From positions 19,753,923-19,817,922 of the forward strand of contig JBOZIK010000001.1 in NCBI GenBank assembly GCA_051453625.1: a stretch of DNA of 64,000 bases, read 5' to 3'. This document shows positions 22,485 to 64,000 of the stretch, piece after piece. The first letter of the stretch is position 1; each line of letters begins with the position of its first letter. This DNA comes from Welwitschia mirabilis (lineage: Eukaryota). Made by a program: the position numbers and the translations under genes. The notes under the pieces were generated by a model. It saw nothing but the letters and a program-made list of their open reading frames with translations, had not been told where the DNA came from and did not search any database.

Positions 22485-23931
22485 CATTGGTAAATCTAGT
22501 TTTTATAATTTCACTTGTCAAATATTTTATGTTAATGTGTAGATATGTCAATAAACATTGATTGACCTTAGACTATAATGGATCTTCAAAGACAACATCA
22601 CATGAAAAGGATTAGTTGACAAGATATAAAATCAATTGCTTAAAGACATCTATGAAATTAAAGATGTCTTGAGTAAAAATGTCTATGAAATTGAAGAGTC
22701 TCTATGTATTATAAATCAAGTCACAGGATAAAATACAACTACCATATTTAAGATAATTAAGCTAAAAGTTAAACTTGACATAGATGAAGATGTCTACATA
22801 TTTTAAGACATCTATATTGAGTCAAAACAAGTAATAGAGTTAATTTGGTTTTTAACTAATATCTTACATTTTAGATGAACTGTGAACTTGTATCTTTCAA
22901 ATTCACGGTTATAGAGATCCAAAAATACTATAGACCAAAACTCATCAAAATTAGGATAAGTTAACAGAAGACATCTACAAAAGTTAAGAAATCTCGGACA
23001 AAATTTCATATCAGTAAAAAATAAAGTTACGTGTCTAATTCCTAGACATTTCCTATTTGTTACACAATGGTTACAAAATCAAACAACTACCTTTCAAGAT
23101 TAAACAACTAGATCTTCTTTGATTATATAAAGGCTTAACATGATGAAAACGAAGAAGCCTTTTTTTAAAACTACAGTGTATACTCAGCTTTTAAATCTTG
23201 GTACATAATAATCAAATCAAAATCAAAGGATACATAAGTGTAAGAAACTTTTCACGGAGAATAAAAGGCATCATTTATAAATAGCTTACATTACTTTTAC
23301 CATTTAATCTTGGATGGACATTGATGTTATCTTCATGCATACTCATAACTATAATGACAATATCAAGAAGCTTAAATCTTCATCAAAGCAATATCTTTAG
23401 GCTTTTTGTTGTATTATACTTTTAATTTTACATTGTGAACTATGTTATTATTGAATATTATTGTAAGTCCATTCTTAAATATCAAATACTTTGTAAGGTC
23501 ACCCTTAGAGGGGTGTGCATTAGATATTATACTTTAAGGCACTTGTTTTATGTAAGATTATTGGTGAGCCAGAAAACCATTATTTCCTTGTGAGAAAGAG
23601 AGTGATGCCTTTTGAGAAGACTTTCACTATTCTAAAGGTTGATGATGTGCTTATGAAAACCACTATTCCCTTAAGAAGGAGAGAGTTCTATCTTACAAGG
23701 AGACTTTCATTTTTTATTTAGTTGGTAGAGCACTAAAATACCACTATTTTCTTACAAGTTAAGAATATTCAGAGGTGTGAGTAGAAGCTATCCTTTATGT
23801 ATGAATGTACCCAGGTTATAAGCCCACATTATTTGATAAGATGTTTTTATGGTACATTTTCTTTTTTTTATTAGTTTATCTTTACTTGGTGAAACTAATT
23901 CACCCCTCTTCTCTAAGTTTAATTATTTTCA
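22485..23931 (+). repeat. 5' LTR of A1
   Basis: Starts CATTGGTAAATCTAG (decayed TGTTGG), ends TTTTCA just before the PBS; collinear with the other five LTR copies. Confidence 0.92.
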
Positions 23932-23982
23932 AGTGGCATCAGATTGGGTACTTATGAAAAGGAGTAACTTCCTTAAGTGAAC

Positions 23983-26000
23983 AATGGAAGGGATGTCATC
24001 ATTAAACATCTGCTCTTTGATGGGGAAAACTTTGCCTATTAGAAGATAAGGATGTGAGTGTACTTATAGTATTTTGAGTTTTAGATATGGTAGAGCATAG
24101 AAGAAGGCTACACAAATCCTATGAAGAATTTTATAAATGTTGCAAGTAATACCATTACTCAGATCAAGAAAAGGAAAGACCTGATAGATGAAAAAAGATA
24201 CTTTATGTATGACTCTAAATCTAAGAATGCACTTTATTCTACTTTATCTCTAAATCTAAGAATGCACTTTATTCTACTTTATCTATAAGAGAGTTTAATA
24301 GAATAGCAAGCCACAAGATAAAACAATAAATATGAAATGTTCNNNNNNNNNNATGAAGGCACTTCTATCATGAAACAATCTAAGCTTCTAGTTTAGATAA
24401 ATTAATTCAAGAATCTCAAGATGAACCATGGAGAAAGGGTTCATGAGTGCTTTATTAGAGCTTCAAACATTGTGAAAGCAATACATGGCATTAGAGAATA
24501 TCTTTCAAAAGCAAAGATAATATAAAAAGTTATTAGGTCACTAACCTTTGAATATAGATCAAAGACTACAACTATGGAAGAATCTAGAGATTTCAATTAA
24601 TGAATATAGAAGAGATACACAGTGCTCTTACATCATACAAAATGAATCTCATACAAGATGAAGCTTTGAAAGAAAAACCTATTGCACTTTAAGGTAAGCC
24701 AAACCATAAATTAGAGATCAAATCAAAAGATGAATGAAGAATAGAAAGAATAAGACTTTAATAATGAAAATGAGAAACTCATGTTCATTATAAAAAGAAT
24801 AAAGAGACTTCTTGCATGAAAATACAATAAAATGGAAGACTTCAATAAATAATCAAGTTTTCTAGCTAATGCTAAGTCAAAATATAAGTCTTCTATTAAT
24901 GCTTCTTTTCCTAATATTTTAAAAGTGGAATGTTGGGTATGTGGAGGACAAGAACATATAGCCTTGAAATACCTTAGTACTAACAGATTATAGGATAAGA
25001 AATAAAAGAAAGAGTCAAAGAAGAAGAAATCATCTTTATAAGATGGAATGATGATGAAGATATAATAGAAGAAGAAACATTTGATAATGAGAAAGTACAT
25101 CCTTCATAGATGTCCATTACACACTTTCAAAAATAAGATAATGAGACANNNNNNNNNNNNNNNNNNNNNNNNNNNNNNNNNNNNNNNNNNNNNNNNNNNN
25201 NNNNNNNNNNNNNNNNNNNNNNNNNNNNNNNNNNNNNNNNNNNNNNNNGAAAGAGTCAAAGAAGAAGAAATCATCTTTATAAGATGGAATGATGATGAAG
25301 ATATAATAGAAGAAGAAACATTTAATAATGAGAAAGTACATCCTTCATAGATGTCCATTACACACTTTCAAAAATAAGATAATGAGACAAAAGGAGAGTA
25401 TGATTTAGAAAGTGAAGATGATTTAGGTATGAGAATTTAAGAAAAGTACATTATAATTTCTAAAAAATTTATTAATATACAAAAATTATGCACTAAAATG
25501 AAAAATCTACTTCATACTCATAAAAAGCATATGAATAATAAAAGGATGCTTGCAAAAATTTATCCTCTGAAAACTCAGATCTTAAAGCCAAGGTTGGTAG
25601 TGTAACATATGAATTGGAGAATGTTAGTTAAGAACTTTCAAATTCAAAGAAAATCATTAAAATATTTACCCAAGGAAAAGAAACTTTGAATGTCACATAG
25701 TCCCACTTGTAAAGAAAAAATTCAAGTGGCAAGAGTGGCTTGGAATATGATGAATCCAAATTAGCATTTTAGTCTCTCTATATGAAAAGTGGAACTACAT
25801 GACAAAGTATGAACATTTGACATTTACCAATAATATTATTTACTATTATTATCTTAATAAAGGTCATCGTTAGAATAGATGTTCAATGAAAGTTAAAGAC
25901 AAGTATTATATTAACAATGCTAAAAGGCCCAATAGAATTATGTGTAGGTTAAACAAAGAAATGTTTAGATACCAAAAGCAAAATCAGCACTTCTAACACA
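23983..26000 (+). pseudogene. gag: Decayed Sirevirus-type gag (UBN2-like capsid, zinc knuckle, coiled-coil tail)
   Basis: MEGMS..LFDGENFAY*KIRM, KVIRSL....SKTTTMEESRD, and knuckle ECWVCGGQEHIALKY (~24928). Confidence 0.85.
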
Positions 26001-26929
26001 AACCGCTTCATAAGAAAAATCAAAGAAGTAAAGTATAGGCATGAAAATAAGAAGAAATCAATAAAGAACAAGAAATATAACAAAGGCATGTCAATACAAG
26101 ATACTATTAATCTTCTTGATTCTAAGGTCTTAAAATCTCAAGGTAATGAAAGATATATTAAATCATATAGGAACTTGAAGATTAAACATTATCTAATTAG
26201 GTAAGTAAATAGGTAATATCCTTTAATCTCTTAACTTTATACTGCATTTATCTTATGAGTTGAGATTGCAATTAGATGTAGTTGGTATAGTTAAACTTAA
26301 ATTATGTGTGTGATATTTATCTTTTTTAAAGTATTATTATGTTTGTATTAGTCATAGATCTTTTAAAAAAATCTATAACTTTCATTATAGACATCTTCAG
26401 TTTTATAGAAGTCTCTGGTGGACACGTCTTAAGATTTGTAGACATCTTGAAAGTAAATGTCTTGAATTTGATATATGTCTTAAAAGGATAGGTATGTTAT
26501 TGTATCTTTCTAAATTAGATGTCTTGCATTTTGTAGATGTCATAGCAGGAAGAAAATGTATTGAAAAGTTTTTAATAAGAGATGTCTTTGAGTTTTTAAA
26601 CACCTACTTTTTGCATTTTAGATGTCTTACAGATTGTAGATTCTTAATTATGCTATTACAAAAATTAAAAATGGACTAAAAATAGGGTTTTAACCCTTTT
26701 AATTTGCAAAAGAAACCACAAAATATTATTTTTAAGTCCTTAGTTAATAGCAATCTCTCTCAAAATATTTTTTAGAATTTATTTTCTTAGATTTCTCTAC
26801 CAAAACATCTTGGATCTCTAAGACATCTTAACATCACATAAGAATAGGGTTTTCTCTTAAACATGTGTATATTTTTCATATTTTCTTATATTCTAGTTGA
26901 TCTTTTACCAGTTTTTCATATTATCTTAT

Positions 26930-28610
26930 AAAAGATTAGAAGATAGATAGCAGGAACTTCTAAAGAAAAGGAACAAGCCTTAAAATAACAAAGATCTCAA
27001 GATGAGCCTTAGTTCTATCATGAGGCACCTGCAAGAAGATTTAAAACTTGGTCTATAAAATTAGTCATTATAGAAAAACCCTTGAATTCTAGAAAAAACA
27101 TAGAGATTAGCTTATGGATTACTTTACTTAGCTAGGATGAAAAATGATCCTTTAACTAGATCACCCTATTCCGGATCTAGTAGTAATAATATTTTGTGTC
27201 AGTATTCATGAAATAGATGATAACATGGGTGCCTTTCAAACATATGTTAGAAGTACCTCTTTGTACATTATTTCTAGTTTTGTTAATTCATTTATTAGCA
27301 TAGATGATATAGATATCCCTCAGATTTATATTTATTCAGTCAAAGGAATATTCAATTTTAGAGTTATTAGTATGGCTCGGCATAGTATGAGTAATGCTTT
27401 ATTTGGGATTAGTAGAATGTACTTTATTGAGAACATTGAAATAAAAGATATACTAGATGTCTTAATTCTTAGTTTAATAACATTCTATAATATTTTGGTT
27501 AGTGGAGGTAACTATAGTTATTACAAATCCATGCATATATTGATTGTATATTGTTTACTCCCTAGATTATAGGTAGATTTGGATTTTGTTTTATGCATGG
27601 ATATCATCTTATTATTTTGCAAGGGACAAACTTTTAGTCACCCTTGTCTTATTAGCTTGATTATTAGTAGTGCAGATATTTTAGTGTCATAAATTAATCT
27701 CATTCGTTAGAAGAAACCATTCACAAAATTCAATATGAAAAATGGAGCCTATCACTACCACTAGGTAAGGGCACAAGAAGGAGGACATTATAGTATCGGT
27801 GTTCATTTTCTACTACTACTCATATCTCTTCATCAATGAAAAAGGGATTAAAGGCCATCACAAAAATGGTGGGTAAAATTGGAAGAAATCTAGAATAAGT
27901 AAAGATGAGGCACTAGTGGAGAGTTTAGAATCCATGAGAATGCCTACATGACTAGACTTAGAGGATGAATCAGATGTTAAAGAATAAATAGAACTTTTAG
28001 CTCCATTTAGCATAAGATATGGCTCAAGTAGGGCAACAGACAATGAATCCTGAGAGGAGTCTTCTAGAAATGAGGCACAAGCTTAGGGGGAGCACTAGAC
28101 TTCCATAGAGGTACATGTGCAAGGGGGAAATAGGCCTTTGATTCTTTAAAGTAGAGGAAAGCATAGGAGGAGATAGAGTCTGAAAGCTTAAATGCACCAC
28201 CTCTTGTCTTTCATCATCCACAGAGTAATATTTCATTTCACTATCCTACTTAGCCATCTTTACCTCACTCCATAATCCAATCACCACTACAATGTGTACC
28301 TTCACCACCTCCATTACATCCACCATTACCCTAGCCATCTCATGTAGAACCTACTCAGGTAAAACCACTTTTCTCTATGCATTTATCTTCATCCTTTGCA
28401 AAGAATACCATTACCATTTTTTTTAGGATGTCTATCACTCCTCAAATGTATCAATGTATGAGGATATATGCCTTTGATGGCCTTAGTAAAACATCTCATT
28501 GTCCTTCTTGAAAGAGGCACACTTCACCTTCCACTTCCTTATCATCTTATATCCAACCAACCTTCACCACCCATGATAGTGATGATAGTGATGAAGAAGG
28601 CCAAGGCATG
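26930..28610 (+). pseudogene. Decayed extra ('env-like') ORF of A1
   Basis: Lies between the RNase H tail and the PPT. Reads ..PDLV..FCVSIHEIDDNMGAFQTYVRSTSLYIISSFVNSF (ORF 27225-27572), resembling the extra-ORF family of Sire/Athila elements, followed by a Pro/Ser-rich tail. Confidence 0.6.
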
Positions 28611-29382
28611 TATTACATAAGTGATTTAGGTCTTAGTAATTAGAGACTTTTATGATGTTTAAAAAGTGGAATAAGTATTACCAAATCATTGGCATATTAG
28701 TGACTTACCAGTTGGGAATCATAGTTTTTTTTTAAGGATACTCTATTGGGCTTGGAGTTCTTGATCATAAGATATTAGATTGAATCCATGAGTTTTATTA
28801 CTATTATTGATGATTTCTCTTATTTTTTTAGCACACATTATTATTACATCATATTTTTCTACCATTACTGCTTATGAGCACATGTTTTTATGATTAGCAT
28901 ACTTTTTGTTTTTAATATGATGCTTTTGTTGGAATACTCTTAATTTTGTTATGCTCTAATGTCTATTTATTATCATTTCCATGAGTGCACTCTTTATGAT
29001 GTATTATTGGCACATAATTCAATTCCATGCTCTAATATATGGAACATTATTATTAGCATATTTCATTTGAAAAATTGTCAAACATTTTTATGCTTTACTT
29101 TTTACATACATATTTGAATGGCAAATATCATGGTTTACTAATTATTTTTGCATCTTTAGCTAATTTCTCAAATAGATCTATAACATGTCTTAATCTATTT
29201 TCCAAGTAATATATATGTGTATTTTCATATAATTTCAAGTGGTTTATATCATAAGTTTTTCAATATTATTGAATACTTTGATTATGTGTATTTCTCTAGA
29301 ACATAAATGTCTAATTTTAAATTATTTAGATGAGCTTACACAAGATTTGCCAAGTTCTCAATGTCATCAAAAAGGTGGAGAT

Positions 29383-30844
29383 TATTGGTAAATCTAGTTT
29401 TGGTAATTCCATTTGTCAAATATTTTATGTCAATGTATAGACAAGCCAATATCAAAAGCATTATACATTGATTGATCTTAGACCATGATGGATCTTTAAA
29501 GATAACATCTCATGAAAGGATTAGTTGATAAAAGAAAAACTCAATTTTTTAAATACGTTTGAAAAATTAAATACATTCTAAGTGAAGATGTTTAGGAAAT
29601 TGAAGATTTCTTTGATGTACTAGAAATCAAGTCATAGGTTAAAATATGACTACCATATCCAAAACAACTAAGCTAAAACTTGAACCTAACATAGATGAAG
29701 ATGTTTACATATTTAAAGACATCTATACTAAGCTAAAACAGGTAATAGAGTTAATTTGGTTTTTTCCTAATATCTTGTATTTTATATGAGCTATGAACTT
29801 ATAAATCATGGATTCATGATTATAGAGGTCCAAGTATACTACAGAGAGAAATTCATCGAAATTAGGATAAATTGACTAAAGATATCTAAAAAATAAAGAC
29901 GTCTAACTGTTAGTAAACATTTACAAAAGTGAAGACATCTCAGATTGAAATTTGTATTGATAAAAACTAAAGTTATGCACCTAATACTTAGATGTTTTCT
30001 ATTTATTACATGATGATTACAAAGTAAAACAACTATCTTTCAAGCTCAAATGACTTAATATTTTTCAATCATATAAAGGATTGACATAAAAAATAAAGAA
30101 GTTATTCCTTTAGATCTTAGCACACAATAGACAAATCAAAAACAAATAACACACAAGTGTAAGGAATTTCTCATAAAGAATCATAGGCATCATTAGCTTG
30201 TATTTCTTTCATCATTTGATCTTAGACCTATGTTATTGTTATCTTCATTCATACTCATCACTATAACAACTACATCAAGAAGCTCAAATCTTCATTAAAG
30301 CAATATCTTCAAGCTTGTTACTATATTATACTTTTAGTTTTACATTTTGAACTATTTTATTATTAATATTATTGTAATTTCATTCTTGAATATCAAATAC
30401 TTTGTTAAGGTAACTCTTATAAGGGTGTGTATTTAAGATTGTTCTTTTAAGTACTTCTTTGATGTAACTTTATTGGTGAGCCAAAAAACCATTATTCCCT
30501 TACAAGGAAGAAAGTAATGTCTTATGAGGAGATACTTACTATTGTAAATATTTGTGGTGCACTTATGAAAACCACTATTCTCTTGAGGGGAAGAGAGTGC
30601 TACCTTGCAAGGAGACTCTCATTTATTATTAGGTTGATGATGCACTAAAAAACCATTATTTTCTTGAAAGTGAAAAATATCTAGAGGTGTGAATAAGAGC
30701 TACCCTCTATGTGTAGACGTACCTAAGTTAGGAAACCACATTATTTGAAAAGGTGTTTTTATTATGAATTTTCATTCTATTATTGGTTTTATTTTCATTT
30801 GGTGGAACTCATTCATCCCTCCCCTTTGAGTTCAATGATTCCCA
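29383..30844 (+). repeat. 3' LTR of A1
   Basis: Starts TATTGGTAAATCTAG directly after the PPT; ends GATTCCCA followed by the TSD. Confidence 0.92.
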
Positions 30845-31519
30845 AGATACCACACTTATTTCCTTTCTGATGAAGTAATTCACTTTGTTATGGTGGAATA
30901 TCTAGAGAATGTAGTATCAGCTTTAATCCTTGAATTCCATGATTACTCATTTTATAAGAAAAGTAAAAGAAATAAAGTTTTACCTTGAACTTAATATTAA
31001 GCATATAGTTAGTCATTTACCTCCTATAGGAAGATAGGACTCTTAGGAAATGGATATGTAAATCATTTTGTAATGAAATTTATGTATGTAATACATTTTT
31101 AGAAATGTAATAAATTTTTTTCATATAATTATTTTCTAAGCTTATTATTAATCTTTTTTATATTAATGATAATTTAATAATTAATTAAGTGATAAAGGAA
31201 TCGTCACAAAATGAAAAGAGGTTTATGATCACATAATTAATTTCATAAATTAACCATGCATCACATTATCTGATTAAGCATTAAATGATCATACTTCTTT
31301 TGGAAATGCAACAAAAAAATTAAATTTAATTGTTAATATAGTGAGGCTAAAAATTGAATTTTTAGAAGTTAAAATGTTTCATTTTCTTAATTTTTTGATA
31401 TAATTATAAATTGTAAATAATTATACAATAAGGACTAATGATTTAGCTAGTTGCATGGGCTTATTATAATATGAATATCAAGCAATGTACACTTATTCAC
31501 TATTGATAAAAATACAAAT

Positions 31520-33800
31520 AGATTAGTTCAAACGTGTCAAGACTAGGTTATAAATAAGAACAGGCTATTAATAGATAACTAACCATTAATAGCTATCAAC
31601 AGCTTGATGATGAGACATCTATATAATGGCTTCATGATAAGGAAAAATCTAAAGTTAAGGATGCATAAACCCATCCTAGTGTAATATTCATGTAATTGAA
31701 CTTATTAACAATCAATAACTTCACAACAGACTTCAATTAAAAATGTTAAGACACTACAAAAAGAGATCATAACTTATTGATAACCTATTGATTTTTTAAA
31801 AAACTTGTAATAGGATGAATAATTAGTTTTTAACAAGCCTTAAAATAGATATTACTTTTAGTTTTCTTGTAATGATAAGTATGAATCCCTAATCAATAGC
31901 AATAATCATGAAGATATGAATAATCGAGAGGATTTTTAACCATTTTTGATAGGCAGGTGATAAGTATTCAAGATTTTGCATGTCCTATCAATAATTAATC
32001 CAACATGCAAGAGGAAATTACAAGAAAAGTATAAGCAATTGAAAGAATCAACTTAGTGTTAATTATTTTATACTCCAAATCCTTTATTTTCATATCTAAG
32101 TTGATGTAAATGCCATTGTAGTATTCTTTAAAATTCCATTAGAAGTTAAGTATAAATGCATATTCTTTTAAATTATCTTATAAAGATTACTTTTAGAGAT
32201 TCTTTTAGTGCATATTCAATTTGATCCATAATGTGTAATCAATTTGAGACTTCTTATTAAAATGTTATTAGAATATTTTTGAATTAGGTTATTTTATTTA
32301 ACTTCTTTTAATTTCTACTTTTGATTTTAATTTTTTTCCTTCATTATAGTAATTCATAATGTAAAATTTTTAGTTGATATTCCAAGTTTATTTTATAATC
32401 AATGTCATAGCTTTTTTTTAATATTTTGCAGTCTCAAATTAGCATCCTATGCATATAACTAGTTTAATGCATGATATAATTTATAGTACAAATTAATATT
32501 TTCATTTATTATGTGATATGGAATCCATTCATATATTCATTAAAGACCAATTTGTAAGTCATGTTATTTTACTTTCATGCATTATTAATAGGGTAACAGA
32601 CTATGAATATTGTAAAATCGATATAATTCATCTTTCCTTTAATGTGCATAATTAAGTTGAAAGCGAGTAGTTTCTTTTGGCTTTTTTTTTTATATGAAAT
32701 TTGTTTGTAATTTGCATTATTTTATTTTTACTTAAAAAATAAATTAGATCTACTTAATTACTCAAATCTAGTTTCTATTATCTTAAATCTACATTTGAAA
32801 TCTTCCTAGCATATGATAAGCTACGACATGAGAGCTTAGCTAGCTCTCACTACTTGTTACATTTTAGTGCCATTTCTATAAAATCATTAGTGATTAAATA
32901 TTTCGAAATAGGTTTCATTAATTATTTTATTTAAAATTTTTAAAATTTATTATTGAATTTTAGAAAAACATGATAAGTGGTCAGAACTAGGCATACTATC
33001 ATAACCTATCTTATCAAATCCTAGAACATATCCTAAGAAACCTTCAAATGTGGATTTAAGATAATAAGAACTAGCTTAACTAATTAACTATGTTTAATTT
33101 CTTTTCATAACCAATAAATCAAGTAATTTAAACTTTAAATAAATGTAACTATGAAAAATAAAAGTAAAAAAAACTACTTATACTTAATTTTATAGTGAAT
33201 TTTAGATGAGATTACAATGGACTATATGATAAGTCAGATGTGGGAATAAAGGAGTTTGAGTACATATTAATTTAACACCAATTTGGGCCTTTAACTCCTT
33301 GTCCTTTCCTTTTATTTGTTTATCTCATATTGGGTTGATTATTAATAAAACATGCTAAATCCTTAATCCTTATTGGATGCCTCTCACAAATGGCTAAAAA
33401 TCCTCTCAATTATTGATATGGTTATGATTTTCATCATTGATTATGAATTTCCCTTATTACATTTGAGAAAATTATAACTATTTACATTTTAAGATTGTCA
33501 ATAATTATTAGTTATTCCTATTACAAGTATTTTAATCAATCTGTAGCTTACCGATAAGTCTCCCTTCCTTTTTGTAACATGTTATCATTTTTAACTGATT
33601 TCGTTATGAAGCCATCAATTGTTAATTCTATTCTTAGATTTCATAGTACAATGTGTCCATCAATTCTTAACCTTATATATTCCTTATTATCAAGCTATTA
33701 TATAGTTATCTTATTACATGCTATCAATAGCTATAAATGGTCAATTATTTGTGAATATATTTTTCCTCTTTATCATACTATATTAGCAAGTTTGAACTAA
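31520..33800. repeat. Long degenerate inverted repeat: arms ~31520-32158 and ~33178-33800 around a ~1 kb spacer
   Basis: The reverse complement of 33800-33178 aligns by eye along the left arm (TTAGTTCAAAC; ACCATT(A/T)ATAGCTAT; CCTTTATT...CCATTGTA...TTAAGTATAA). Confidence 0.8.
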
Positions 33801-33813
33801 CCCCCCCTTTTTT

Positions 33814-35498: not shown

Positions 35499-35686
35499 TG
35501 AGGATCATTGAAATTAGAGGATAAGTTTGAATGAGTTTATCAAATAAAAATTAAACTAATAGCAGAATGGAAATGCACAATAAAAACACCTTACCAAATA
35601 ATATGGTTTTTCAACCTAAGTATGTCAATACATAGAGGGTAGCTTCTACTCATATCTCTGGATATTTACTATTAGAAACATAGACT

Positions 35687-36025
35687 TTTAAGGAATTTCT
35701 TAAAAACCTTAAGAAATGCCTTAAAATGCCTTAACAAATGCCTTAAATTCTTTTAAGACATTTTATCAGAAAACCCATTAAAAAACCTTGCTTTAAAAGC
35801 CTACATGCTTTTAAGGCATTTCAAAGGCATCATATTTGAGGCATTTGTATTTCCTTTTAAGGCATTTCTTAACAAAAACATATTAAAAGGATTTTAAGAC
35901 ATTTATATTAAAACATGTCTTAAAAACCTTTTAAGGCATTTAAAATACCTTAGAAGGCTTTTAAGATGTTTTTTGATATAAATGCCTTAAAAGGCTTTCA
36001 ACATGTTTTAAAAATAAATGTTTCA
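35687..36025. repeat. CACTA left subterminal repeats
   Basis: Many direct and inverted copies of AATGCCTTAAAA / TTTTAAGGCATT. Confidence 0.9.
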
Positions 36026-36803
36026 AACTATTTTTTTTTTACATGAATACATCAAAATGTTTTGAGTTATCCTAGTAAATAAACTCCTTAAAATACATAA
36101 CTTTGAAGGAAAAAGAAAAAAATAATGGTGCTAATATTGAAGGAACACCCAAAATTAGGCAACAGTCAAATCTGATAGAGAAAAAGGGTACAGATAAAAA
36201 GAATTTTAAAAATGTTTATTAGATTGATACATTGAACTTTCATAACCATGTGCCCTTCTTTTCATTATCTAATGGATTTCCTCTTATAATCCTCTTATAA
36301 GGGTGGTGGCTTGTTTCACTTGTATAATTCTTATAAGCCTATGATTTAAGTTCCTCCTCCGTGTGTCCTTTTTTCTAGTTTCTAATGAATTTTTAAAATC
36401 ATTACAAGTCATTTTATTCATTTATTATTGCTTTTTTTCTTATGATACCATTTCTTAAAGTGTCTAAATTTTAAGTTAATTATCATTTTACCTTATACAT
36501 TATTACTACTTTCCATAAAGCCTAAAGGTTTTATCTTATTCCACATAAATCATGTGACTAATATTAAAAACCTCATAAAACTAAGGGATAATAACACAAA
36601 GTTCCCTTGAATTTCATACACATTAAAAACAATAAATAATATTGGATATTATAGTTGAAGTTTTCAGTTTTCAATGTCTCATTAAAAATACAATCCTGCT
36701 ACCACCTTTAAAGTGAAATATTTTAACAGAAGAAGATAATATGTGCATGAAATTAAAGAATAAAAAAGTGAGTCAATGACTACGATCCATTAAAATTGTG
36801 TAC

Positions 36804-52200: not shown

Positions 52201-53760
52201 CTTTAAAAGTTTTAGGTTCCCATTGAGAGATATAAGTTGCATAACCATAAAATTCTCTAGTATGACTTCTAGTTTGAATGCCTCCATAAGGACTTCTTAT
52301 AATGTTGCTAATAGAGTAACATTTTTTTCAGTTTGATCATGGTTGATGGAATTTCCTTTTTTGTTTTTTCTTCTTTTTCTTCCTCATTGTCAAATTTAAT
52401 TTAAGAATGTTTAAAGGATTAAAAAATTTACATAAGAACATAATCATCTTCCACATTCACAGGAGTTAACTTAGTATCATTTATTTTAACATTTATAATT
52501 TCCTCAACTAGTGACATCTATTATTGTATACTTTATAAGCCTTACTAATCAAAAGATATCCTTGAAAAATTCCTTTATCAACTTTTAAATTAAACTTCCT
52601 CAAATTGTTATTTTCATTTAAAATAAATAATTTTGATCTAAAGATATGAAAGTAATTAATAAAAGGTTTTCTACCTAATCATAACTCACATGAAATATTA
52701 GAAGTGAATCTTCTTATCAAAACTCTATTGGAAACGATGCACTCAATATTAATACTTATGTCCAAAAAGGATATGATATCTTTTTGTCATGCATCATTGT
52801 CCTAGCTACTTCATTGATAACTCTATTCTTTTTTTTGGCCACTCCATTTTGTTGAGGTATTTCTGGAATAAATAATTGATGAAAAATTCCAAGTTATTTA
52901 TACAATCCTCTAAACTTTACATTTTTGAATTTGATACCATTATCACTTCTTATCATTTTGATTTTGTATCCCTTTGAGTCTTGTAACCTAATGCACAACT
53001 TAAAAAAGGCATTAAAAGCTTCATCCTTGTGAACAAGGAAGGCTACCCATGTGAAATAAGAAAAATCATCTAAAATTATCAAATAATATGTTTTCTTACC
53101 TAAGATTTCTATATATGAAGGATCAACAATGTCTAAATTTAAGAAATCTAATGGAAGTTCAGTAGAGATAATATTTTTCTTACAAAAGTCTATCTTATCT
53201 ACTTTATTTTTTGATAAGCTTTATAAATCTAATTATTAATGCTTTTAAACTTTGAAAGTTATCTTACTATTTCCTTTATAGACTAGATTTTGAAAAGATC
53301 TTTATGCACCTAAGCAAGCTTCTTATGCCATATTTCTACTTCATCTATTTTGCTAAGAAAACACTTGGTTTCACTGTTAGATATATCTTGTAAGGTGGTG
53401 ATATAAACATTTGATTTATTCACACTATTAAAATAAGGCTTTGACAATATTTTGTTCTCTTATAATATAATCATTTTCTTAAACAAACAAAAAAATTTAC
53501 ATTACAATGTTGACGTACACTTAAAATATTATGTTACAAGCCTTTTATAAATAATACATCTTTTACCTCTAGTAAATTAACTCCTTTAATGGTACTAATG
53601 CCTTTGATTGGTGCTTCTTTGTTGTCTCCAAATGTTACGACTCCTTTATCTTATTCCACTAAGGTGATGAAGCTAGATTTATCTATAGTCATGTATCTAG
53701 AGCATCCACTGTTAACATACAATATGTGCTTCTTAATTATTCTGAGTGCTATTTAAGCTA
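49280..53760 (-). pseudogene. pol: Decayed copia pol of unit B1 (PR-INT-RT-RH); INT/linker region present twice around the N gap at 52100-52199
   Basis: YVNSGCSRYMT (~53720), DDFSYFTWVAFL..IRSDNG (ORF 52894-53082), LRKFDLKVDEEIFVEYS..SKAYRVYN (ORF 51037-51399), IYIDDVIF (~50225), KHIKI*HHFLREH (~49450). Confidence 0.92.
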
Positions 53761-56629
53761 TAATAGCTAGCTTTAATGTTTTTATTAAAAATTTTCTTTG
53801 TTTTTCCTATAAGACATTATACCAATCTACTGGTCCTTTTGGCATTGTTAGTATAAGAACTAGGTTTTCTGAAGATAAGTAATTGTTTAAATTCTTTTCT
53901 TGTTTATAAGATTCTTCATGAGTATAGAGTAAATTTTTCATCTTAATACATATCCTTTTTAGTCTAATAAACTCTTTTGAAATTAGTTCATACCTTTCTT
54001 AAATATCCAAATTTGTGTCATCTTTACTATCTAATTCATCTTCTTCTCTTATCTCATCTTTTTCTTCTTAAGAAAGTGTAATGGCCATGAGAGTAGGATA
54101 AGTTTCTTCATTTGATATTTTTATCCCTATTTTAGTCTTTGCATGTTCTTCATCTTTATTTCTCTAAATATGAAACTCATAATATATTAAAAACATCTAT
54201 ATCCTCATCTTCTAATAGGCGTAGTTTATCCATTTAAAGAGAAAAGATTTAACAAATGGCATTTCTTTCATTGTTCACTCAATAAAATTACTCCTTTTTA
54301 TGAGTACCCATTTTGATACCACTTCAAAATCATTAAACTCAAATGGAAGGGGTGAATGAGTTCCACCAAATAAAAATTAAACTAATAACAAAATAATAAT
54401 CCATAATAAAAGCACCTTACCAAATAATGTGATTCCCCAACCTGGGTATGTCCACTCATAGAGGGTAGCTTATACTCTCACCTCTAGATATTCTTAACCT
54501 ACAAGAAAATAGTGCTTTTCTAGCACATTACTAATATAATAACAAATGAGAATATTCTTATAAGATAACACTATCTTCCCCTTAAGGGAATAGTGATCTT
54601 CATAGGCGCATCACAAATATTTACAATAGTGAAATTCTCCTCACAATAAAGTACTCTCTTTCTCATAAGGGAATAATGGTTTTATGACTTACTAATAACC
54701 TTACACTAAAAAAGTTCCTAAAAGCACAATCTCAAATGCACACCCCTACAAAGATTACCTTATAAAGCATTTGATATTCAAGAATGGACTTATCACAATG
54801 GACTTATAACAATATTTAATAATAAGATAGCCCACGATGTAAAATCAAAAGTACAATATAACAACAAGCCTAAAGGATATTTCTTTGATAAATATTTGAG
54901 CTCCTTGGTGTAATTGTTATATTCATGAGTATGAATGAAGATAATAGCAATGTAGATCCAAGATCAAATGATAAATAAAAGCTCTTTGCAAATGATGCCT
55001 TTGCTTCTTCATGAGAAGCTCCTTACACTAATGTGTTCTTTGTTCTTGATTTGATCATTATGTGATAAGATTCAAAAGCTGAGTCTTTGTTGTTATTCCA
55101 AGAATTCCTTTTTATTTTGTGACATTGAGTCTTTATACTAGCAAAAAATATCTAGTCATTTGAGCTTGAAAGATAGAATTTAATTTTGTAATCATCATGA
55201 AATGGATACAAAATATCTAGGCATTAGGTGCATAACTTTGGTTTTTATTGATTTAAACTTTAATTTAAGAAGTCTTTACTTTTGTAGATGTTTATTAACA
55301 GTTAGATGTCTTTACCTTGGTAGATGTATTCAATTAACTTATCTAATTTTAATGAATTTTACTCTATAGTATGCTCAGACCTTCTTAATCACAAATCCAT
55401 GATGTACAAGTTCATAGCTCAACTAAAATACAATATGTTCAAATATCAAATTGACTTTATTACCTATTTTAGCTTAGTATAGATATCTTCAAATATAAAT
55501 GGATTCATCTATGTTAGGTTAAACTTTTAGCTCAGTCTTCTTAAATACGATAGTCATCTTTTACTTAGTCTTCGTAAATATGATAGTCATCTTTAACCTA
55601 TGACTTGAGTTCTAGCATATTAGAGGCGTATTCAATTTACTAGATGTCTTCATTCGATATGTCTCCAATTTTTCATATGTCTCCAAAAAATTGATTCTAT
55701 ATTTGACTAATTGATCATTTTCATGAAATGTTATCTTTTGAAATACATCATGGTTTAAGGCCTATCAATGTTTGATGCTTTTGGCATTAACTTGTTTACA
55801 CATTAACATAAAATATTTGACAAGTGAAATCATCAAAACTAGATTTACCAACAATCTCTCCATTTTTGATGATCTCCAAGACTTGGCAAGTCTCATTAGA
55901 ACAATCTCATCTAATCAATTAAAATCAAACATTTATACTCTTATTAAATGCACTTAATCACTGTGTCTAATGATATTGGAAAATCATGATGTAATCCACT
56001 TGAAATTATATAAAAATACATAGTTATATGTCACTTGAAAAAAATATATTAATACATGTTAGAGACCTATTTAATCAATTTATCTAATAAGAATCAAAGC
56101 ATGTCAAAAATAAAATTGAATTAGCAATATATTCATGAAAAATAGAGTATTAAACATTGTAGAAATGTGACCTACTGAATATGATTGATAGTATGAATTT
56201 GCTAAAACTTCTTCCCCTTTTCAGATAACAGAGAAAATGAAATATAGATTTAAGAATCTGATGCACCCCCTACACATGTGCCTCCCAGAGAGTCTAGCAC
56301 GATCCCTAAGTTTGTGCCTTTATATGTATTAGCTAATGTCTTTCTAACCATTTTCCAATACTAGTATAGAAAAAGATGTCTATAATTCCTTAATAAAACT
56401 ATCTTAAAGATGTCTACAAACATGCATACATCTGTAATGAAAGTTCTATATTTTTTGAAAAGATCTATAACTACTATAAGCAAAATAATGCTATTTCGAA
56501 AAAAGATAAATATCACACACATAATTTAACTTTACTAACTACACCTAATTGCAATCTCCACTTATAAGATAAATACAATGTGGAGTTAAGAATTTAAGCA
56601 TACTACCTATTTACTTACCTAATTGGGTA

Positions 56630-59600
56630 AGGCCCAATTCCCAAGTTCCTACATAATTTTACATATCTTTTAGTACTTAGATATTTTGTAAATGCATCTA
56701 CAAGTGAATCATATATACTGATCTATTGCATTATACTATCTCTACTCTAAATATGTTCTCTAAGAAAGTGATATTAGATCTTAGTATGCTTAGTTCTTAA
56801 GTGTTGTATAAAATTTTTGGATATATTAATGGTAACATTGTTATTATAATAAATAGGAATGCTATCCATATAGAGATCAAAATCTTTCAACATCTATTTC
56901 ATCCATAGAAATTATGCCCAGGAACTTCCAACAGTAATATACTCAACTCAACTATTAATAGAATGGTTGAGTTTTATTTTTTACTACTCCAAGAAATTAG
57001 GTGTTATCCAAGCAAAAAGTATGTTCCACTTGTAATTATTCTCTCATATTTGCATCCTATCCAATCTATATCAAAATACTATACTAGATCAAGGGATGAG
57101 TCCTTTGAGTACCAAAGATTCCAATTAATAGTACCCTTTAAGTCGTAAAAAATTCTTTTAATAGCTATGAGGTGTGATTCACTAAGATCACTTTGATTAT
57201 ACACATAAATTATATACTTTACATAATGTCATGTCGACTAGTTATAAGATATAATAGACTACTAATCTTACCTCTATATAGCTTTTGATCCACATTCTTA
57301 CCATGTTCATCTTTGTCTAGTTTGGTGTTTTGATCCATGAGATTGTCTTTTCCTTGGTAATCTTATAAATCATATTTAACTAGGAAAATTTTGATATATT
57401 TAGGTATGAAATAAATGCATCTTCCTTATGTTGCATAATTCAAAGTCCCAGGAAGTTGCTTATTTTTTTCATAAGACTCATTTCAATTCATCCTGCATAA
57501 TCTTAGCAAATTTCTTTCACAAGGATTTATCAGTACTAAAATTTTTATCATATATATAAATTTAAATAATAATAAAATCTTTACAATCTTTTATAATGAG
57601 TAATGTGATATCTGAAGTATATACTTGAAAATCATTTTCAATTAAATGATAAAGATTTTTTTCATATCAAGCTATTAGGACTTCTTTAAGATAACAAAAA
57701 GCCTTCTTTAATTTATAGTTATGATCAAATTTTTGAGATTTAGTGAATCCATCTGGTTGTTTAACATATACTTATTCTTAAAGATTTTCATTGATAAAAA
57801 CACTTTTGACATCCATTTTATAAAGTTTGAATCCTTTCTTATAAGTAAAGGCTAAAAGAATTCTTATTGATTTCATACATGCCACAGAAGGAAAGGTCTC
57901 TTCAAAGTCAATTTCTTATTGTTGCTTGTAACCTTTTACCACTAATATTACCTTGTTTCTAATAACACTATCATATTTATCTATTTTTTCCCTAAAACCT
58001 CACTTAGTGCTAATGACTAATCTATTAGAAGGTCTTGGAGTAAGTTCTTAAATATTACACCTTTCAAACTAATTAAGCTCTTCTTGCATATCAAACATTC
58101 AATGTTCATATTTTTAGCTTCTTTGAAAGTTTTAGGTTTAACTTGAGAGGTATAAGCTATATAACAATAACATTCTTGAGTATGACTTCCAGTTTAAATG
58201 TTTGCATAAGGAATTTCTATAATGTTGCTAATAAAGTAACTCATTTTTAGTCTAATCATGGTTGATGGATTTTCCTTTTCTATTTCTTCTTCCTTTTTCC
58301 CTCACAGTCAGATTAAATTTAAGGATGTCTATAAGATTAAATAATTTGAACAAGAATATAATCATCTTTCTCATCTATATAATCTGACTCAATATCATTG
58401 ATTTTAACATTTATAGATTTCTCAACTAGATGGGTTTTATTATTTTACACCTGTAAGCCTTAATAACCATAGAATACCCTAGAAAAATTCCTTCATCAAC
58501 TTTTGAATCAAACTTCCTCAAATTATCCTTTTCATTTAAAATAAATAATTTTGATCCAAATGAATAAAAGTAATTAATAAAAGCTTTTCTACCTGGTCAT
58601 AACTTATATGAAGTCTTAGAAGTGAAATTACTTACTAGAACTCTTTTGGAAACATAGACTACTGTATTGATTACTTTTACCCAAAAATGATATGGTACCT
58701 TTTTATCATGCATCATTGTCTTGGCCATTTCATTAAGAACTCTATTATTTCTTTCAACTAATCCATTTTGTTGGGGTGTTTTTAAAGTAGAGAATTAATG
58801 TAGAATATCAAGTTGTTCATAGAATTCCCTAAATTATGAATTTTTAAATTTAGTGCTATTATCACTTTTATAATTTTGATCTCATATCCATTTTGGTTTT
58901 GTAACTTGATGCACAACCTAGAAAAGGCATTAAAAGCCTCATCCTTATGAAAAATGAAGAATATCCATGTTGAAATGAGAAAAATCATTTATAATTATTA
59001 AATAATAACTATTTTCACTTAAGCATTTTATAGATGAAGAAAGAATAATGTCTAAATGTAAGAGATCTAATGCGCATTTAGTAGAGATAATATTTTTCTT
59101 ACTAAATTTTACCTTTATCTACTTTCCTTTTTAACAAGCTTCATAGATCTAATTAAGAATGCTTTTAAACTTAGAAAGTTATCTTACCATTTTTGTTATG
59201 GACAAGATTTTGAGAAGATCTTTATTTACATAATCAAACTACCTATGCCATAGCTATTCTTCATCTATTTGGCTAAAAAACACTTGGTTTGATTATTAGA
59301 TATATCTTGTAAGGTGATGATATAAAAATTTGATATTCTTACACCAACAAATAAGAATTTAACAATATTTTATTCTCTTATAGTACAATCATTTTTTATA
59401 AACATAATAAAAAAATTTACATTAGAGAGCTGACTTCTACATAAATATTATGTTGTAAACCTTTTGTAAAGAATACGTCTTTTACCTCTAGTAAATTATC
59501 TTCTTTAATGGTATTAATGCCTTTAATTAGTGATTCTATGTTGTCTCTAATCGTTATAATCCTTTATCTTATTCCACNNNNNNNNNNNNNNNNNNNNNNN

Positions 59601-59760
59601 NNNNNNNNNNNNNNNNNNNNNNNNNNNNNNNNNNNNNNNNNNNNNNNNNNNNNNNNNNNNNNNNNNNNNNNNNNNNNTATTCCACCAAGGTGATGAAGCT
59701 AGATTGGTATTTAGTCATGTGTCGAAAGCATCCATTATTAATATATCATGCATGCTTCTT
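56630..59760 (-). pseudogene. pol: Decayed copia pol of unit B2 (PR-INT-RT-RH)
   Basis: *YINNGCFRHMT (~59745), TPQQNGLVERNNR (~58780), KFDSKVDEGIFLGYS (~58510), YKMDVKSVFIN (~57820), RTKHTKI*YHFLREH (~56800). Confidence 0.92.
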
Positions 59761-59769
59761 CACTTCTCT

Positions 59770-60615
59770 AAGTGCTATTTGAGCTAAAAGAGCTAGTTTT
59801 GATTTTGGTACCAAAATTTTTCTTGACTTGTCCTATATAAAACATTGTACCAATCTACTTAGCCTTTTGGCATTATCAGTATAACACCTAATTTTAATTT
59901 TTGTTAGACATTTGTACTAATAATGACCTCTATTATAACAATAATAATAGATAATATTATTTCTATATACAAGGTGTTGGTACCTAAGCTAATAGTTTCA
60001 TTTGTTAAGTAAGAAGGTTGATGTGCTTATTATAGCTTCATTATGTCCCAAGCTACTTTTGTCATTTGATTGTTTACATTGCCCAATCATAATATTCAAT
60101 GTCTTCTTTCCTTGGGTGAATTTTTCATTGATCTTCTTTGAATCAGATAGTTTCTGTCTTATAAACTTTAATTCAATGTTAGTTTATAACCTCAATTGTA
60201 AGAGCTAAGTTTTTTAAAGATAATTTATTGCTAATACTCGTCTCTTGATAATAGTCTTCTTCATGAGTATAAAGTAACTTTTTTACCTTAATACAGTATT
60301 TTATAGTTTAATAAACTTTTTAGAAATTATTTCATACCTTTCTTAAACATCCAAACCTATGTCGTCTTTACTATCTGATTTATCTTCTTTTCTTATCTCA
60401 TAATTTTCTTCTTTAGAAAGTGCAATGGTTATGAGAGTGGGATAAGTTTCTTCATATGACATTTTTATCCCTACTATAGTCTCTATGTATCCTTCATCTT
60501 TATTTTTTCAAATCTAAAACTCATAAGATTGTGAGAGCATCTATATCCTCGTCTTTCAATTGGTGCATTTTATCCATTTGAAGAGTGGAGGTCTAACTGA
60601 TGGCACTTCTTCCAT
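59770..60615 (-). pseudogene. gag: Internally deleted mini-gag leader of B2 (equivalent in B1 at ~53770-54272)
   Basis: ATG at 60615: MEEVPSVRPPLFK..*KTRI..EGYIET joins in frame to EETYPTLITIAL, skipping the capsid and knuckle segment present in A1 at ~24120-25085. Confidence 0.8.
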
Positions 60616-62153
60616 TATTTACTTAATAAAGTTACTTCTTTTCATGAGTATCCACTCTGATATCACTTGAGGATCATTAAACTTAGAGGAGATGGATGAA
60701 TGAATTCCACCAAATAAAAATTAAACCAATATCAGAATGGAAATGTATAATAAAAACACCTTACCAATAATATGGTTCCCCATCCTGGGTACATTCACAC
60801 ATAAAGAGTAGCTTCTGCTCACACCTTTGGATATTCTTGACCTATAAGAAAATAGTGATTTTATAGTGTAACACTAACCTAGTAACAAATGAGCTTCTCC
60901 TTGCAAGATAGCACTTTCTCCTCCTCAAGGAAATAGTGGTTTTCATAGGCGCACCATGAATCTTTTATAATAGTGAGAGTCTTCTTGCAAGACAACACTC
61001 TCTTCCTAACTAGGGAATAATGGTTTTCTAGATCACCATTAATCTTACATCAAACAAGTTCCTAAAAACACAATTATAAATGCACACTCCTAAAAAAGTT
61101 ACCTTACAAAGTATTTGATATTAAAAAATGGACTTATAATAATATTCAACAATAAGATAGTTCATAATGTAAAACCAAAAGTACAATAAAACAATAAGCT
61201 TGAAGATATTTCTTTGATGAAGATTTAAGCTCATTAACATTATTATTATATTCATGAGTATGAATTAATATAATAGCAATGTAGATTCAAGAATACATGA
61301 TAAAAGCAATGCAAGCTCTTTACAAATGATGCCTTTGATTCTTCATGAGATATTTCTTACACTTATGCATTCTTTGTTCCTGATTGGATCATTGTATACC
61401 AATATTCAAAAGCTAAATATTCACTTTTAATCTAATAATCCCTCTTTGTTTCATGAGTTAATCCTTCATACTGTTAAAGAAGATCTAGTTGTTTGAACTT
61501 GAAAGACAGTCATTTGAGCTTGAAAGATAGCCATTTGATTTTATAACTATCATTTAATGAATAAAAAACATCTAGGCATCAAGCACATAACTTTGGTTTT
61601 GATTGATACAAACTTTTCACTTTTCTAGACATCTACTAATAATTAGATGTGTTTACCTTATAGTTGTCTTTAGTTAACTTGTCTTAATTTTAATGCATTT
61701 TGCTCTATAGTATTCTTTGACCTCTTTAATCATAAATTCATGATGTATAAGTTCATAGTTCATCTGAAGTGCAAGATATTAGGCAAAGACCAAATTAACT
61801 TTATTACCTATTTTGACTCAGTATAAACATCTTCATCTGTATAAAGTTTGACTTTTAGCTTACTTGTCTTGAATATGGTAATCATCTTTTAGCTTTTGAT
61901 TTAATTTCCAATACACTAGAGATTTATTCAATTTATTAGTCCTCTTTATTTAAGATGTTTTCAATTTCCTAGATATCTTTAAACAATTAATTTTATATTT
62001 GACCAACTAATCTTTTTCGAAGATGTTGTCTTTTAAAATTCATTATGATCTAAGGCCTATCAATGTCTGATGCTTTTAGTATTGACCCATCTACATGCTA
62101 ATATAAAATATTTAACAAGTGGAATCATCAAGATTAGATTTACTAACATATAA

Positions 62154-64000
62154 TAAATTTTTAATGTTCATGTTGGAACTTATGAAGTCACTTCTATTGC
62201 AAAATACTAAAAGCTTCTATATGAATAAATCAATTTAAGAATCTCAAGATGAGCCATAGAGAAAGGGTTCATTAATACTTTTCTAGAGTTTTAAATGTTA
62301 TAAAAACAATACATGACATTTTTCTAAAAGCAAAGGTAATATAAAAAGTTGTTAAATCACTAATGTCTAATTATAGAATCAAAACAACAACTATGAAAGA
62401 GTTTAGAGATCTCAATACAATGAAGATGAAAGAGCTATAAAGTTCTCTTATAACATATCAAAAGAATGTCATACAAGACAGAGCATTGAAAGAAAAACAT
62501 ATTGCACTTAAGCAAGTTAAAGCATGAACTAAAGATCAAAAGGAAAGGTGAATAAAAAAATAGGAATAAGATGACTTTGATGATGGAAATGCATAACTGA
62601 CTTTCATTACAAAAAGAGTAAAGATAATTCTTGCATGTAAATACAACAAAAATAATAACTTTAAAAAACCATATCATTTTCTAACCAAAGATAAATCTAA
62701 ATGTAATTCTTCTAATAATACTTCTTTTTCAGATATTTCAAAAGTAGAATATTAGACACATGAAGAACAAGAACATATAACCTCTGAATACCCTAGTATT
62801 GACATGTTATAGGATAAGGAATAAAAAAAAGAGCCAAAGAAGAAGAAATATTTATTTATTAAATAGGATGATGAGAAAGAGGTAATAAAAAAAAAACATC
62901 TAATAATAAGAAAGCACATCCTTCATAGATGGCCATTGCACACCTTCAAGAATAAGATGATGAATTAGAAGAAGAGTGTAATTCAAAAAATAAAGATGAT
63001 ATAAGTATGAGTATCCAAGAAAAGTACATTATAATATCTAAAGAATTTATTAATCTACAAAAATTATATACTAATATGATAAAGCTACTTTACACTTGTG
63101 AAGAAGCTTATAAATAAGAAAAGAATACTTACAAAAAATTACCCTCTAAAACTTAGCTCTTAAAGCTAAGGTTAGTAGTCTAATGTGTTTTTTAGAGAAT
63201 GTAAGATGATAACTTTCATACTAAAAGAAAATCATTGAAATATTTACATAAGGCAAAGAGATCTTAAATATCATACATGGGCAAAACAAAAATCCAAACA
63301 ATAGCAATGGCTTAAAACATAATAAATCACAACTGGCACTTCAGCTTTTCTATATGAAAAATGAAACTACAAGCTAAGGTATGAATATTTAGGATTTACA
63401 AACAATATTATTTACTAATATTTTCATAGCAGAGTTCATTATCAGGATAGATGTCAAATGAAATTTAAAAGCAGGTATTATACTAACAATACCAAGAGGC
63501 ATAATACAGTGGTATATTATTTTGTACAGGATAAATCAAGAAAAGTTTGAATACCAAAAGAAAAATAAACACTTCTAGCATAAAATACCTTATAAAGTGC
63601 TTTTAATGAATTCAAATGTTTATTAAAAAAAACTAGAGAAGTAAAGAATAGGATGAATATTAGAAGGAATCAATAAAACATAAGAGATAAAACAAAGGCA
63701 TTGTAATACAAGATACTATTGATCTACTTGGCAATGTGGTCTTAAAATCTGAAGGTAATGAAAGATATATTAATTCATATAGGAACTTAGAGATTGAACA
63801 TTATCCAATCAAGTAAGCAAATAGGTAATATCCTTTAACATCTCAACTCCATTACATTTATTTTATGAGTTGATATTATGATTAAATGTAGTTAATGTAG
63901 CTAAAGTTAAATTATGTGTGTGATATTTATCTTTTTGAAATATTATTATTATGCTTGTATTAAATCCTTTTTTCAAAAATGTAGATCTTTTGTTGCAGAC
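62154..64000 (+). mobile_element. Element A2, right part: remainder of gag with the same pol deletion as A1; runs off the window
   Basis: Collinear with A1 ~24327-26400, resuming exactly where gag stopped at 35498. Confidence 0.9.

Follow-up and report, generated by a model that had tools for sequence, protein, structure and literature searches.

The window analysed here, a 64,000-nt stretch of the Welwitschia mirabilis genome (contig JBOZIK010000001.1, positions 19,753,923 to 19,817,922, forward strand), contains a nest of retrotransposons that have one type of long terminal repeat (LTR) in common and occur in two reciprocally deleted forms. Form A (copies A1 and A2) has kept gag and lost most of pol; form B (copies B1 and B2) has kept pol and lost the capsid part of gag. 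The comparisons described below support A and B as reciprocal deletion forms of a single family. The nest is likely to consist of long-dead deletion derivatives, of kinds already known, that were mobilized in trans and came from an extinct high-copy family resembling the Sireviruses.

The six LTR copies were assigned to one repeat family by self-comparison of the window, in which the BLAST alignments among the copies were 66-81% alike. The region of the primer-binding site (PBS) is common to the family copies (CA/AGTGG/TATCAGAG), as is the polypurine tract (PPT), which consists of an A-rich run, an octamer of the AGGTGGAG type and AT/TG. An initial annotation of the same DNA had placed the six LTRs, the PBS and the PPT in one family, and the self-comparison and the junction motifs bore this out.

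The deletion that sets form A apart from B starts just ahead of the active-site motif of the protease and reaches to within ~105-150 codons of the pol end. A capsid domain was found in form A only (Retrotran_gag_2, E = 3e-5; 24 bits, below the Pfam cut-off of 27 bits). Compared with A, both B1 and B2 lack the equivalent of A1 ~24140-25280, which holds the capsid and the first CCHC zinc knuckle, and form B also lacks ~2.4 kb of the linker that lies between pol and the PPT. The first ~45 codons of gag are kept in B and lead in frame into the pre-protease region, followed by protease (PR), integrase (INT), reverse transcriptase (RT) and RNase H (RH). Capsid and zinc knuckle had initially been described as missing from B; this holds for the capsid and the first knuckle, but the gag start is kept, and a second, degenerate CCHC knuckle is retained in B2 and was removed from B1 by a private deletion of coil and knuckle. 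That the window holds no autonomous copy, as proposed earlier, was confirmed: no copy carries both capsid and pol.

Organization of the nest

The positions of the features are listed in Table 1. The window is AT-rich, with a GC content of 0.20-0.37 in 2-kb steps and of 0.20-0.30 across the family copies. A1 is a complete LTR-interior-LTR element between identical 5-bp target-site duplications (TSDs). A2 is split: the B block and a further nested element (35499-62148) sit within its gag, and the flanks of the B block continue the A2 gag, where A1 reads ..ACAATAA... The B block is a tandem LTR-interior-LTR-interior-LTR array under one pair of TSDs. From the nested coordinates and the TSDs, the order of insertion was A2, then B, then the DNA transposon within the B 3' LTR.

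Table 1. Coordinates of the family copies and of the elements nested with them (positions in the window)
Feature	Position	Strand	Remarks
A1, TSD	22480-22484 and 30845-30849		AGATA/AGATA, 5/5 identical
A1, whole element	22485-30844	+	LTR-interior-LTR, 8,360 bp
A1, 5' LTR	22485-23931	+	1,447 bp; starts CATTGG (TGTTGG in other copies) and ends CA
A1, spacer AGTGG and PBS	23932-23948	+	TATCAGAG type, decayed in A1 to CATCAGAT
A1, gag start and first ~45-50 codons	23984-24139	+	M..FDG.N..Y[W]K.RM..EGY; common to A and B
A1, A-only segment	24140-25280	+	Copia capsid domain, first CCHC knuckle ~24931-24972, stop ~24991, -1 frame change
A1, acidic/coiled pre-protease region	25281-26030	+	Homologue of B2 60500-59778, with a second, degenerate CCHC knuckle
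A1, A-type junction	26030-26069	+	Protease start joined to pol 3' end
A1, pol remnant (RNase H C-terminus)	26069-26448	+	Last ~105-125 codons; homologous to B1 49408-49035 and B2 56687-56373
A1, linker	26449-29382	+	2.9 kb; terminal PPT octamer and AT at end
A1, 3' LTR	29383-30844	+	
A2, 5' part	33814-35498	+	LTR 33814-35138, PBS, gag start to equivalent of A1 ~24320
B block, left TSD	35494-35498		CATAA, the last 5 nt of the A2 5' part
B block, 3' LTR end fragment	35499-35666	-	Last 168 bp; 76-78% to A1 LTR ends
Nested CACTA-like DNA transposon	35667-47180		Outside the copia family
B block, 3' LTR main part	47181-48474	-	
B1, interior	48475-54323	-	
B1, parts	INT 52200-53502 and 50788-52090	-	PR, INT twice, RT, RH, short linker
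B1, B-type junction	54133-54156	-	
B block, middle LTR	54324-55853	-	Common to B1 and B2
B2, interior	55854-60667	-	
B2, INT, RT, RH	to ~56373	-	Followed by 0.5-kb linker; N gap 59578-59677
B2, protease motif	~59713-59745	-	
B2, second knuckle	~59908-59949	-	
B2, B-type junction	60476-60500	-	
B2, gag Met	~60615	-	
B block, 5' LTR	60668-62148	-	
B block, right TSD	62149-62153		TATAA; 4/5 match to CATAA
A2, resumed	62149-64000	+	Capsid, first knuckle, coil, A-type junction, pol 3' remnant; continues past window end
A2, A-type junction	63599/63603	+	Equals B2 59761 joined to 56829

The insertion at 35667-47180 (11.5 kb) has imperfect terminal inverted repeats of ~25 nt starting from TACTA, a 3-bp TSD (ATT) and two N runs. 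Its TACTA termini look CACTA-like after C-to-T decay, a likeness to En/Spm; no protein match was seen in it with the copia, gypsy and LINE proteins used. Just upstream of the A2 5' LTR lies an inverted repeat of ~635 nt (31523-32155 versus 33800-33178, 70% alike) that is unrelated to the A/B family. The segment at 5110-9026 (+), found by tblastn matches to the INT and RT-RH parts of plant polyproteins (22-41% identity), is left over from another Ty1/copia element, which is more distant and shows no DNA similarity to the A/B family. One weak tblastn match, to one of 35 plant retroelement proteins, was obtained at 15803-16096 (+).

Form A

Form A was propagated as a pol-less, multi-copy derivative. 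A1 and A2 are separate insertions at different sites with the same deletion, and are collinear over the junction of gag with the pol tail (25250-26392 versus 62828-64000, 75%). Three diverged contigs of a sequencing run from a second, related organism (X5; 237-400 nt, 45-70 differences, ~80-83% alike) bridge the junction at 63599-63603. Since A1 has its own perfect TSD, A2 lies elsewhere and the junction is common to both copies and to these contigs, A spread as a deletion form, and its junction is not unique to this locus, which had been named at the outset as a possible objection. GT..AG ends of a spliced RNA were sought at the A deletion; the breakpoints could not be placed in an alignment this decayed.

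The gag frame of A1 is broken by 13 stops ahead of the first knuckle, and 4-5 in-frame capsid stops are common to A1 and A2 (both counted by eye). The initial annotation was right in giving A1 and A2 the same gag-tail-to-RNase H junction and a capsid; its full gag is not open today, and A2 is split.

Both A copies have a stop about nine codons past the first zinc knuckle (24985-25010 and 62805-62830), and in both, the A-rich run ahead of the acidic pre-protease region holds a frame offset of -1. The shared stop and offset may be a feature of the A lineage that ended Gag, or a shared defect. A tandem duplication of ~36 nt is present in the A1 gag (24213-24284); the sequence is single in A2 (35425-35470).

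Form B

B1 and B2 have the middle LTR in common and lie under one pair of TSDs, so they represent a single integration and their common junction does not count as independent evidence. The junction had initially been treated as recurring in two copies; it is indeed the same in both, although not independently so. The pol domains, earlier called complete, are present in the order PR-INT-RT-RH, but their frame is decayed (85 stops in 1,360 codons in B2). The structure is gag-defective and pol-bearing, and one integration of it was observed.

The Kimura two-parameter (K2P) distance between the B1 and B2 interiors (0.254 ± 0.011, 3,038 sites) is close to that between the B LTRs (0.265-0.276), so the array was formed at or soon after integration, if rates in LTRs and interior are taken as equal. 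At least three separate deletions would have had to fall in the short interval before duplication. From this timing, B very probably integrated already deleted.

Alternatively, B may have been a full gag-pol autonomous copy at integration that lost its capsid and linker in place before duplication and is now what remains of the helper of A. One local history would suffice, every deletion being common to both units under the one TSD pair, and local deletions do occur here, as seen from the private deletion of B1 and its 1.3-kb repeat. Against this, the distances leave roughly 0-20% of the total age between integration and duplication, an interval that would have to hold three or more deletions, compared with about one per two units since, equal rates again being assumed. 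Deletion in place is accordingly considered unlikely. The TSDs initially reported for A1 and for the B block were found again (5/5 and 4/5 positions), and A, with two copies in the window, integrated as such; the corresponding claim for B stands as very probable from the timing, for one integration and not two.

A profile search with the region of the B junction (B1 and B2, with X at stops) gave 0 matches at E <= 0.001 among 1.84 billion representatives; because of the decay of the query, this result is not informative on B-type copies elsewhere.

The INT region of B1 is repeated over 1.3 kb (50788-52090 versus 52200-53502, 78% alike) across the N gap at 52100-52199. The tandem array may hold more units than were assembled, or B1 may carry an old internal duplication.

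Linker between pol and the polypurine tract

The linker is 2.9 kb long in A1 compared with 0.5 kb in B, and the same short linker is found in B1 and B2. An island of 47-54 nt of the A1 linker (28073-28126) is retained in B, which indicates that the long linker is ancestral and that B was deleted. A1 therefore does have the longer linker, as described before, the sizes being 2.9 and 0.5 kb rather than 3.2 and 0.8 kb.

The 'env-like ORF' (open reading frame) earlier placed in this linker could not be upheld, being only a stop-poor frame with no Pfam match and no homologue. The + frame at 27156-28790 has ~29 stops in 545 codons, near the density in the pol frame (85 in 1,360). A homologue search with this frame yielded 4,424 candidates, none at E <= 0.01, and Pfam gave no match in the three + frames of the linker, to which the scan was restricted.

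Family assignment

Three domains follow one another in one frame of B2, namely gag_pre-integrs (8.1e-5, below the Pfam cut-off), SH3_retrovirus (6.2e-10) and RVT_2 (1.3e-26; 94.1 bits versus a cut-off of 31.6), and the beta-barrel of the protease was matched in B1 (Pol_BBD, 1.7e-12). Plant copia polyproteins aligned by tblastn are collinear with B1 and B2 from the protease to the end of RNase H (P0002 over residues 119-1044). The PR-INT-RT-RH order with a copia-type RT, as expected of Ty1/copia, is thus present in B. The ends are likewise of the Ty1/copia kind, with LTRs of the TG..CA type, a 5-bp TSD, a PBS beside the 5' LTR and a PPT beside the 3' LTR.

Sirevirus signatures have been described by Bousios et al. 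(PMC2829016) and include a terminal PPT, a 5' junction motif and a C-rich stretch ~21 nt from the LTR end. The terminal PPT twelvemer (AGGGGGAG, then AT/TG) is matched at 9-10 of 12 positions in three 3'-type junctions (A1 3', B middle and B 3'; by eye), where attributing the mismatches to decay is an assumption only. The 5' junction motif, CA/A[T or G]TGG followed by TATCAGAGC, is matched at 12-14 of 16 positions in four 5'-type junctions (by eye). A CACCCCT-type stretch, corresponding to the C-rich integrase signal, lies ~22 nt from the A1 LTR end, with similar stretches in the other LTRs. One upstream purine run of the GAAAAGGGGAAGAAG type was found in each of B1 and B2; no purine run of at least 9 nt occurs in the last 600 nt of A1.

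Judged from these motifs and domains, the family belongs to Ty1/copia and is probably of the Sirevirus type. It resembles the genus Sirevirus (Pseudoviridae) in the PR-INT-RT-RH order, the PPT octamer with AT/TG, the 5' junction of CA/AGTGG with TATCAGAG and the C-rich stretch, and also in its large size (~11 kb as reconstructed here) and the long linker after pol (PMC2829016). It differs in that every motif is decayed and that the linker ORF has no detectable homologue. No close intact relative of pol was found among the 35 protein matches, 34 of which had 24-42% identity and one 58% over 6% of the query. All 35 are flowering-plant sequences.

Fungal repeat-induced point mutation (RIP) was considered as a source of the AT-richness and ruled out, as TpA/ApT is 0.87-0.97, (CpA+TpG)/(ApC+GpT) is 1.19-1.40 and all the relatives are from plants. 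The indices were read against the customary RIP thresholds.

Decay, divergence and age

The family copies are heavily decayed. Ten ORFs of at least 120 amino acids are listed for 20000-64000, six of which lie on the N run at 37.4-38.1 kb, the rest being 121-142 amino acids long. The K2P distance between the A1 5' and 3' LTRs is 0.271; A1 and B LTRs differ by 0.25-0.31 and the A2 LTR differs from all others by 0.33-0.38. These larger distances fit A2 as the oldest copy by nesting. The tree of the six LTRs is star-like and weakly supported. At a rate of 1.3e-8 per site per year, a K2P of 0.27 corresponds to an age of the order of 10 million years.

Transitions are ~2.2 times as frequent as transversions, and a fit to column counts gave a C-to-T change of ~0.27 per ancestral C/G per copy. 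This C-to-T decay accounts for the low GC content and for the recurrence of stops at identical codons, as in the conserved WK motif, whose W has become a stop in each of the four copies. The capsid stops common to A1 and A2, and likewise the stop and -1 frame change behind the first knuckle, were considered as proof that the A gag was dead before insertion, and were set aside as uninformative given the C-to-T rate and the WK stop.

The interiors are more diverged between forms (K2P across segments 0.33-0.47 for A-B, with 0.45-0.47 in the coil) than within them (0.16-0.29 for A-A, 0.22-0.33 for B-B), whereas the LTRs show no A-B excess. LTRs that are alike around diverged interiors indicate two interior lineages with one LTR type at insertion. 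This pattern is expected from template switching between co-packaged RNAs (reviewed in PMC6894440), and it fits a long partnership of A with the pol lineage that gave rise to B. The comparison rests here on pairwise distances and the six-LTR tree. Such switching is also named in the title of Du et al. (2010, Plant Cell 22:48), where the LTRs are reportedly more alike between partner lineages than the interiors are.

Differences between A and B are distributed over codon positions 1/2/3 as 39/22/43 (n = 104; chi-square ~7.2 with 2 d.f., calculated by hand). A stricter subset, in which B1 confirms B2, gave 19/12/21 (n = 52), and private changes are spread roughly evenly over the positions. The bias hints only weakly at past constraint; the copies are too decayed for selection on their retained ORFs to be read.

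Reads and assembly

A sample of about 1 in 100 of the raw reads of each of two runs (X14 and X15; 12,955,460 reads) was compared with 55700-64000 of the window, a match being a likeness of at least 80%. Matches were obtained for 37,936 (X14) and 40,053 (X15) reads, or ~0.3%, of which only 66 and 86 were at least 99% alike. The summed depth of X14 in both directions was 154-485 over pol, 200-346 over the pre-protease region, 115-138 over the capsid and 775-946 over the LTR ends, but only 30-49 over the short linker and 3' untranslated region of B. Capsid-like and pol-like sequences are thus both abundant genome-wide, and the low depth over the 3' end of B indicates that most matching reads come from relatives without this end. 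Among the best-supported joints and loose ends listed from the reads, none bears on the B junction.

Mis-joining of contigs from different copies might have produced the junctions or the tandem array. Four of the seven N runs of the window lie inside family elements (24343-52, 25149-248, 52100-199 and 59578-677), two of the seven have duplicated flanks, and the 1.3-kb repeat of B1 straddles a gap. Against mis-joining, contigs of two runs from two organisms bridge the B2 junction with 1 difference in ~450 nt (452 nt in organism B), although one of the runs is perhaps the assembly's own source. The A junction occurs in A1, A2 and three other contigs, no junction lies at a gap, and the gap at 59578-59677 is bridged by a contig with 26 other letters in its place. 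The bridging contigs indicate that the local assembly holds, and an artefact of this kind is considered highly improbable.

At the 100-N gaps 25149-25248 and 44077-44176 the flanks repeat each other (~100 nt with one mismatch, and 76 nt at 97%). Gaps with such flanks are probably unmerged contig overlaps and not missing sequence.

Proposed mobilization of the two forms

The ancestral element would have been ~11 kb long and would have consisted of an LTR, gag with capsid and first knuckle, a pre-protease extension with the second knuckle, PR-INT-RT-RH, a linker of ~2.9 kb and an LTR. Form A lost nearly all of pol and kept the LTRs, PBS, PPT, 5' leader with gag start, gag and linker. Pol-encoding relatives whose LTR ends were the same would have provided, in trans, the enzymes by which its RNA was packaged, reverse-transcribed and integrated. 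Form B lost the capsid, the first knuckle and most of the linker, and integrated once, into the A2 gag, for which it would have needed Gag in trans; its tandem array may have been made by unequal LTR recombination or have been present at integration. Helpers, whether autonomous or other defective copies, would have existed elsewhere in the genome.

Several points weigh against mobilization by such helpers. No copy in the 64 kb joins capsid and pol, so that a helper is assumed and not seen, and read depth is blind to whether capsid and pol sequences lie on the same copies. In both B1 and B2 the capsid deletion preserves the frame that leads from the gag Met to the protease. Since B probably integrated already deleted, mobilization of a capsid-less, pol-encoding RNA probably took place at least once, as a bipartite system would require. 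The near-identity of the A and B LTRs at insertion, around interiors that had already diverged, points to A and B lineages that were close partners and exchanged LTRs.

Such a bipartite system was proposed in the initial annotation. A would have supplied Gag, and perhaps a linker protein, and B would have supplied PR-INT-RT-RH, the two RNAs being co-packaged with no active autonomous copy. The two deletions are reciprocal and leave no functional gap between the forms, that of B is in frame, and B probably integrated already deleted; the A-B differences are also fewer at second codon positions, a signal that fades in the stricter subset. However, B is known from a single integration, compared with two insertions in the window and three junction-bearing contigs for A, and its additional loss of the linker resembles a generally eroded copy. 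The capsid stops and the post-knuckle stop and frame change common to A1 and A2 would mean, if ancestral, that the A gag was already broken; C-to-T saturation, which makes parallel stops likely, softens this objection. Autonomous helpers are the simpler assumption, given how abundant the family and its relatives are, and a window of 64 kb is too small to show that autonomous copies are absent. Mutual complementation of A and B is therefore regarded as very unlikely. A genome split during the burst between two co-packaged, mutually dependent lineages without an autonomous master copy, A carrying gag (and linker) only, B being capsid-less with pol translated directly from the gag start, and LTRs being exchanged by template switching, is given equally little credence.

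No mutually dependent pair of retrotransposons was found described in the literature searched, supplementary files not covered. True mutual dependence would make this the first documented LTR retrotransposon family sustained by two mutually defective partners, and a truly split genome would be the retrotransposon counterpart of a segmented virus. On its own evidence the locus is ordinary, and serves as a lead for a genome-wide census.

Comparison with known systems

Mobilization in trans of defective derivatives calls for no new kind of element, as both pol-less gag-bearing and gag-less pol-bearing forms are already known. TR-GAG elements have kept gag, lost pol and are shorter than 4 kb (Chaparro et al., 2015, PMC4350172). 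Form A resembles them in its LTRs, PBS, PPT and 5-bp TSD, in having gag without pol and in being multi-copy (PMC4350172). A1 nevertheless falls outside their definition (<4 kb, a single GAG ORF, no pol remnant), with its 8.4 kb, a 2.9-kb linker, ~105-150 codons of the pol 3' end and a gag that is not open today. That TR-GAG proteins perhaps drive gag-less elements is offered as speculation in the Discussion of that paper.

Pol-less Athila families with gag or with gag and env have been described in Arabidopsis (Marco & Marin, 2008, PMC2410132). Like A, these lineages keep gag and a post-pol ORF region; they have replicated for a long time and recombined with pol-bearing lineages, and possible cooperation is discussed. 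They differ in belonging to Ty3/gypsy and in having intact ORFs under purifying selection, whereas the family described here is decayed and selection on it is unreadable. Among 115 non-autonomous families of sugar beet, 28 retain only GAG/PROT (PMC13570524).

In wheat, GAG is contributed by RLG_Quinta, a non-autonomous element that has LTR, PBS and PPT motifs in common with its pol-encoding partner RLG_Cereba (Heuberger et al., 2024, PMC11302176), a likeness to the relation of A to B. Cereba is fully autonomous, however, and the sole pol-bearing copy seen here is without a capsid. The pol-bearing BARE-2 of barley has no GAG of its own and uses that of BARE-1 (cited in PMC4350172). Form B resembles BARE-2 in bearing pol, in being unable to produce GAG and in its use of a partner's, which in B would follow from the loss of the capsid. 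For BARE-2 a multi-copy lineage is proven and the autonomous partner is known, whereas form B amounts to one integration, with a capsid deletion that is physical and in frame. Beside these systems, the window is a clear and datable case of a gag-bearing derivative that spread without pol, of a pol-bearing derivative that integrated at least once without a capsid, and of LTRs that remained alike around diverging interiors.

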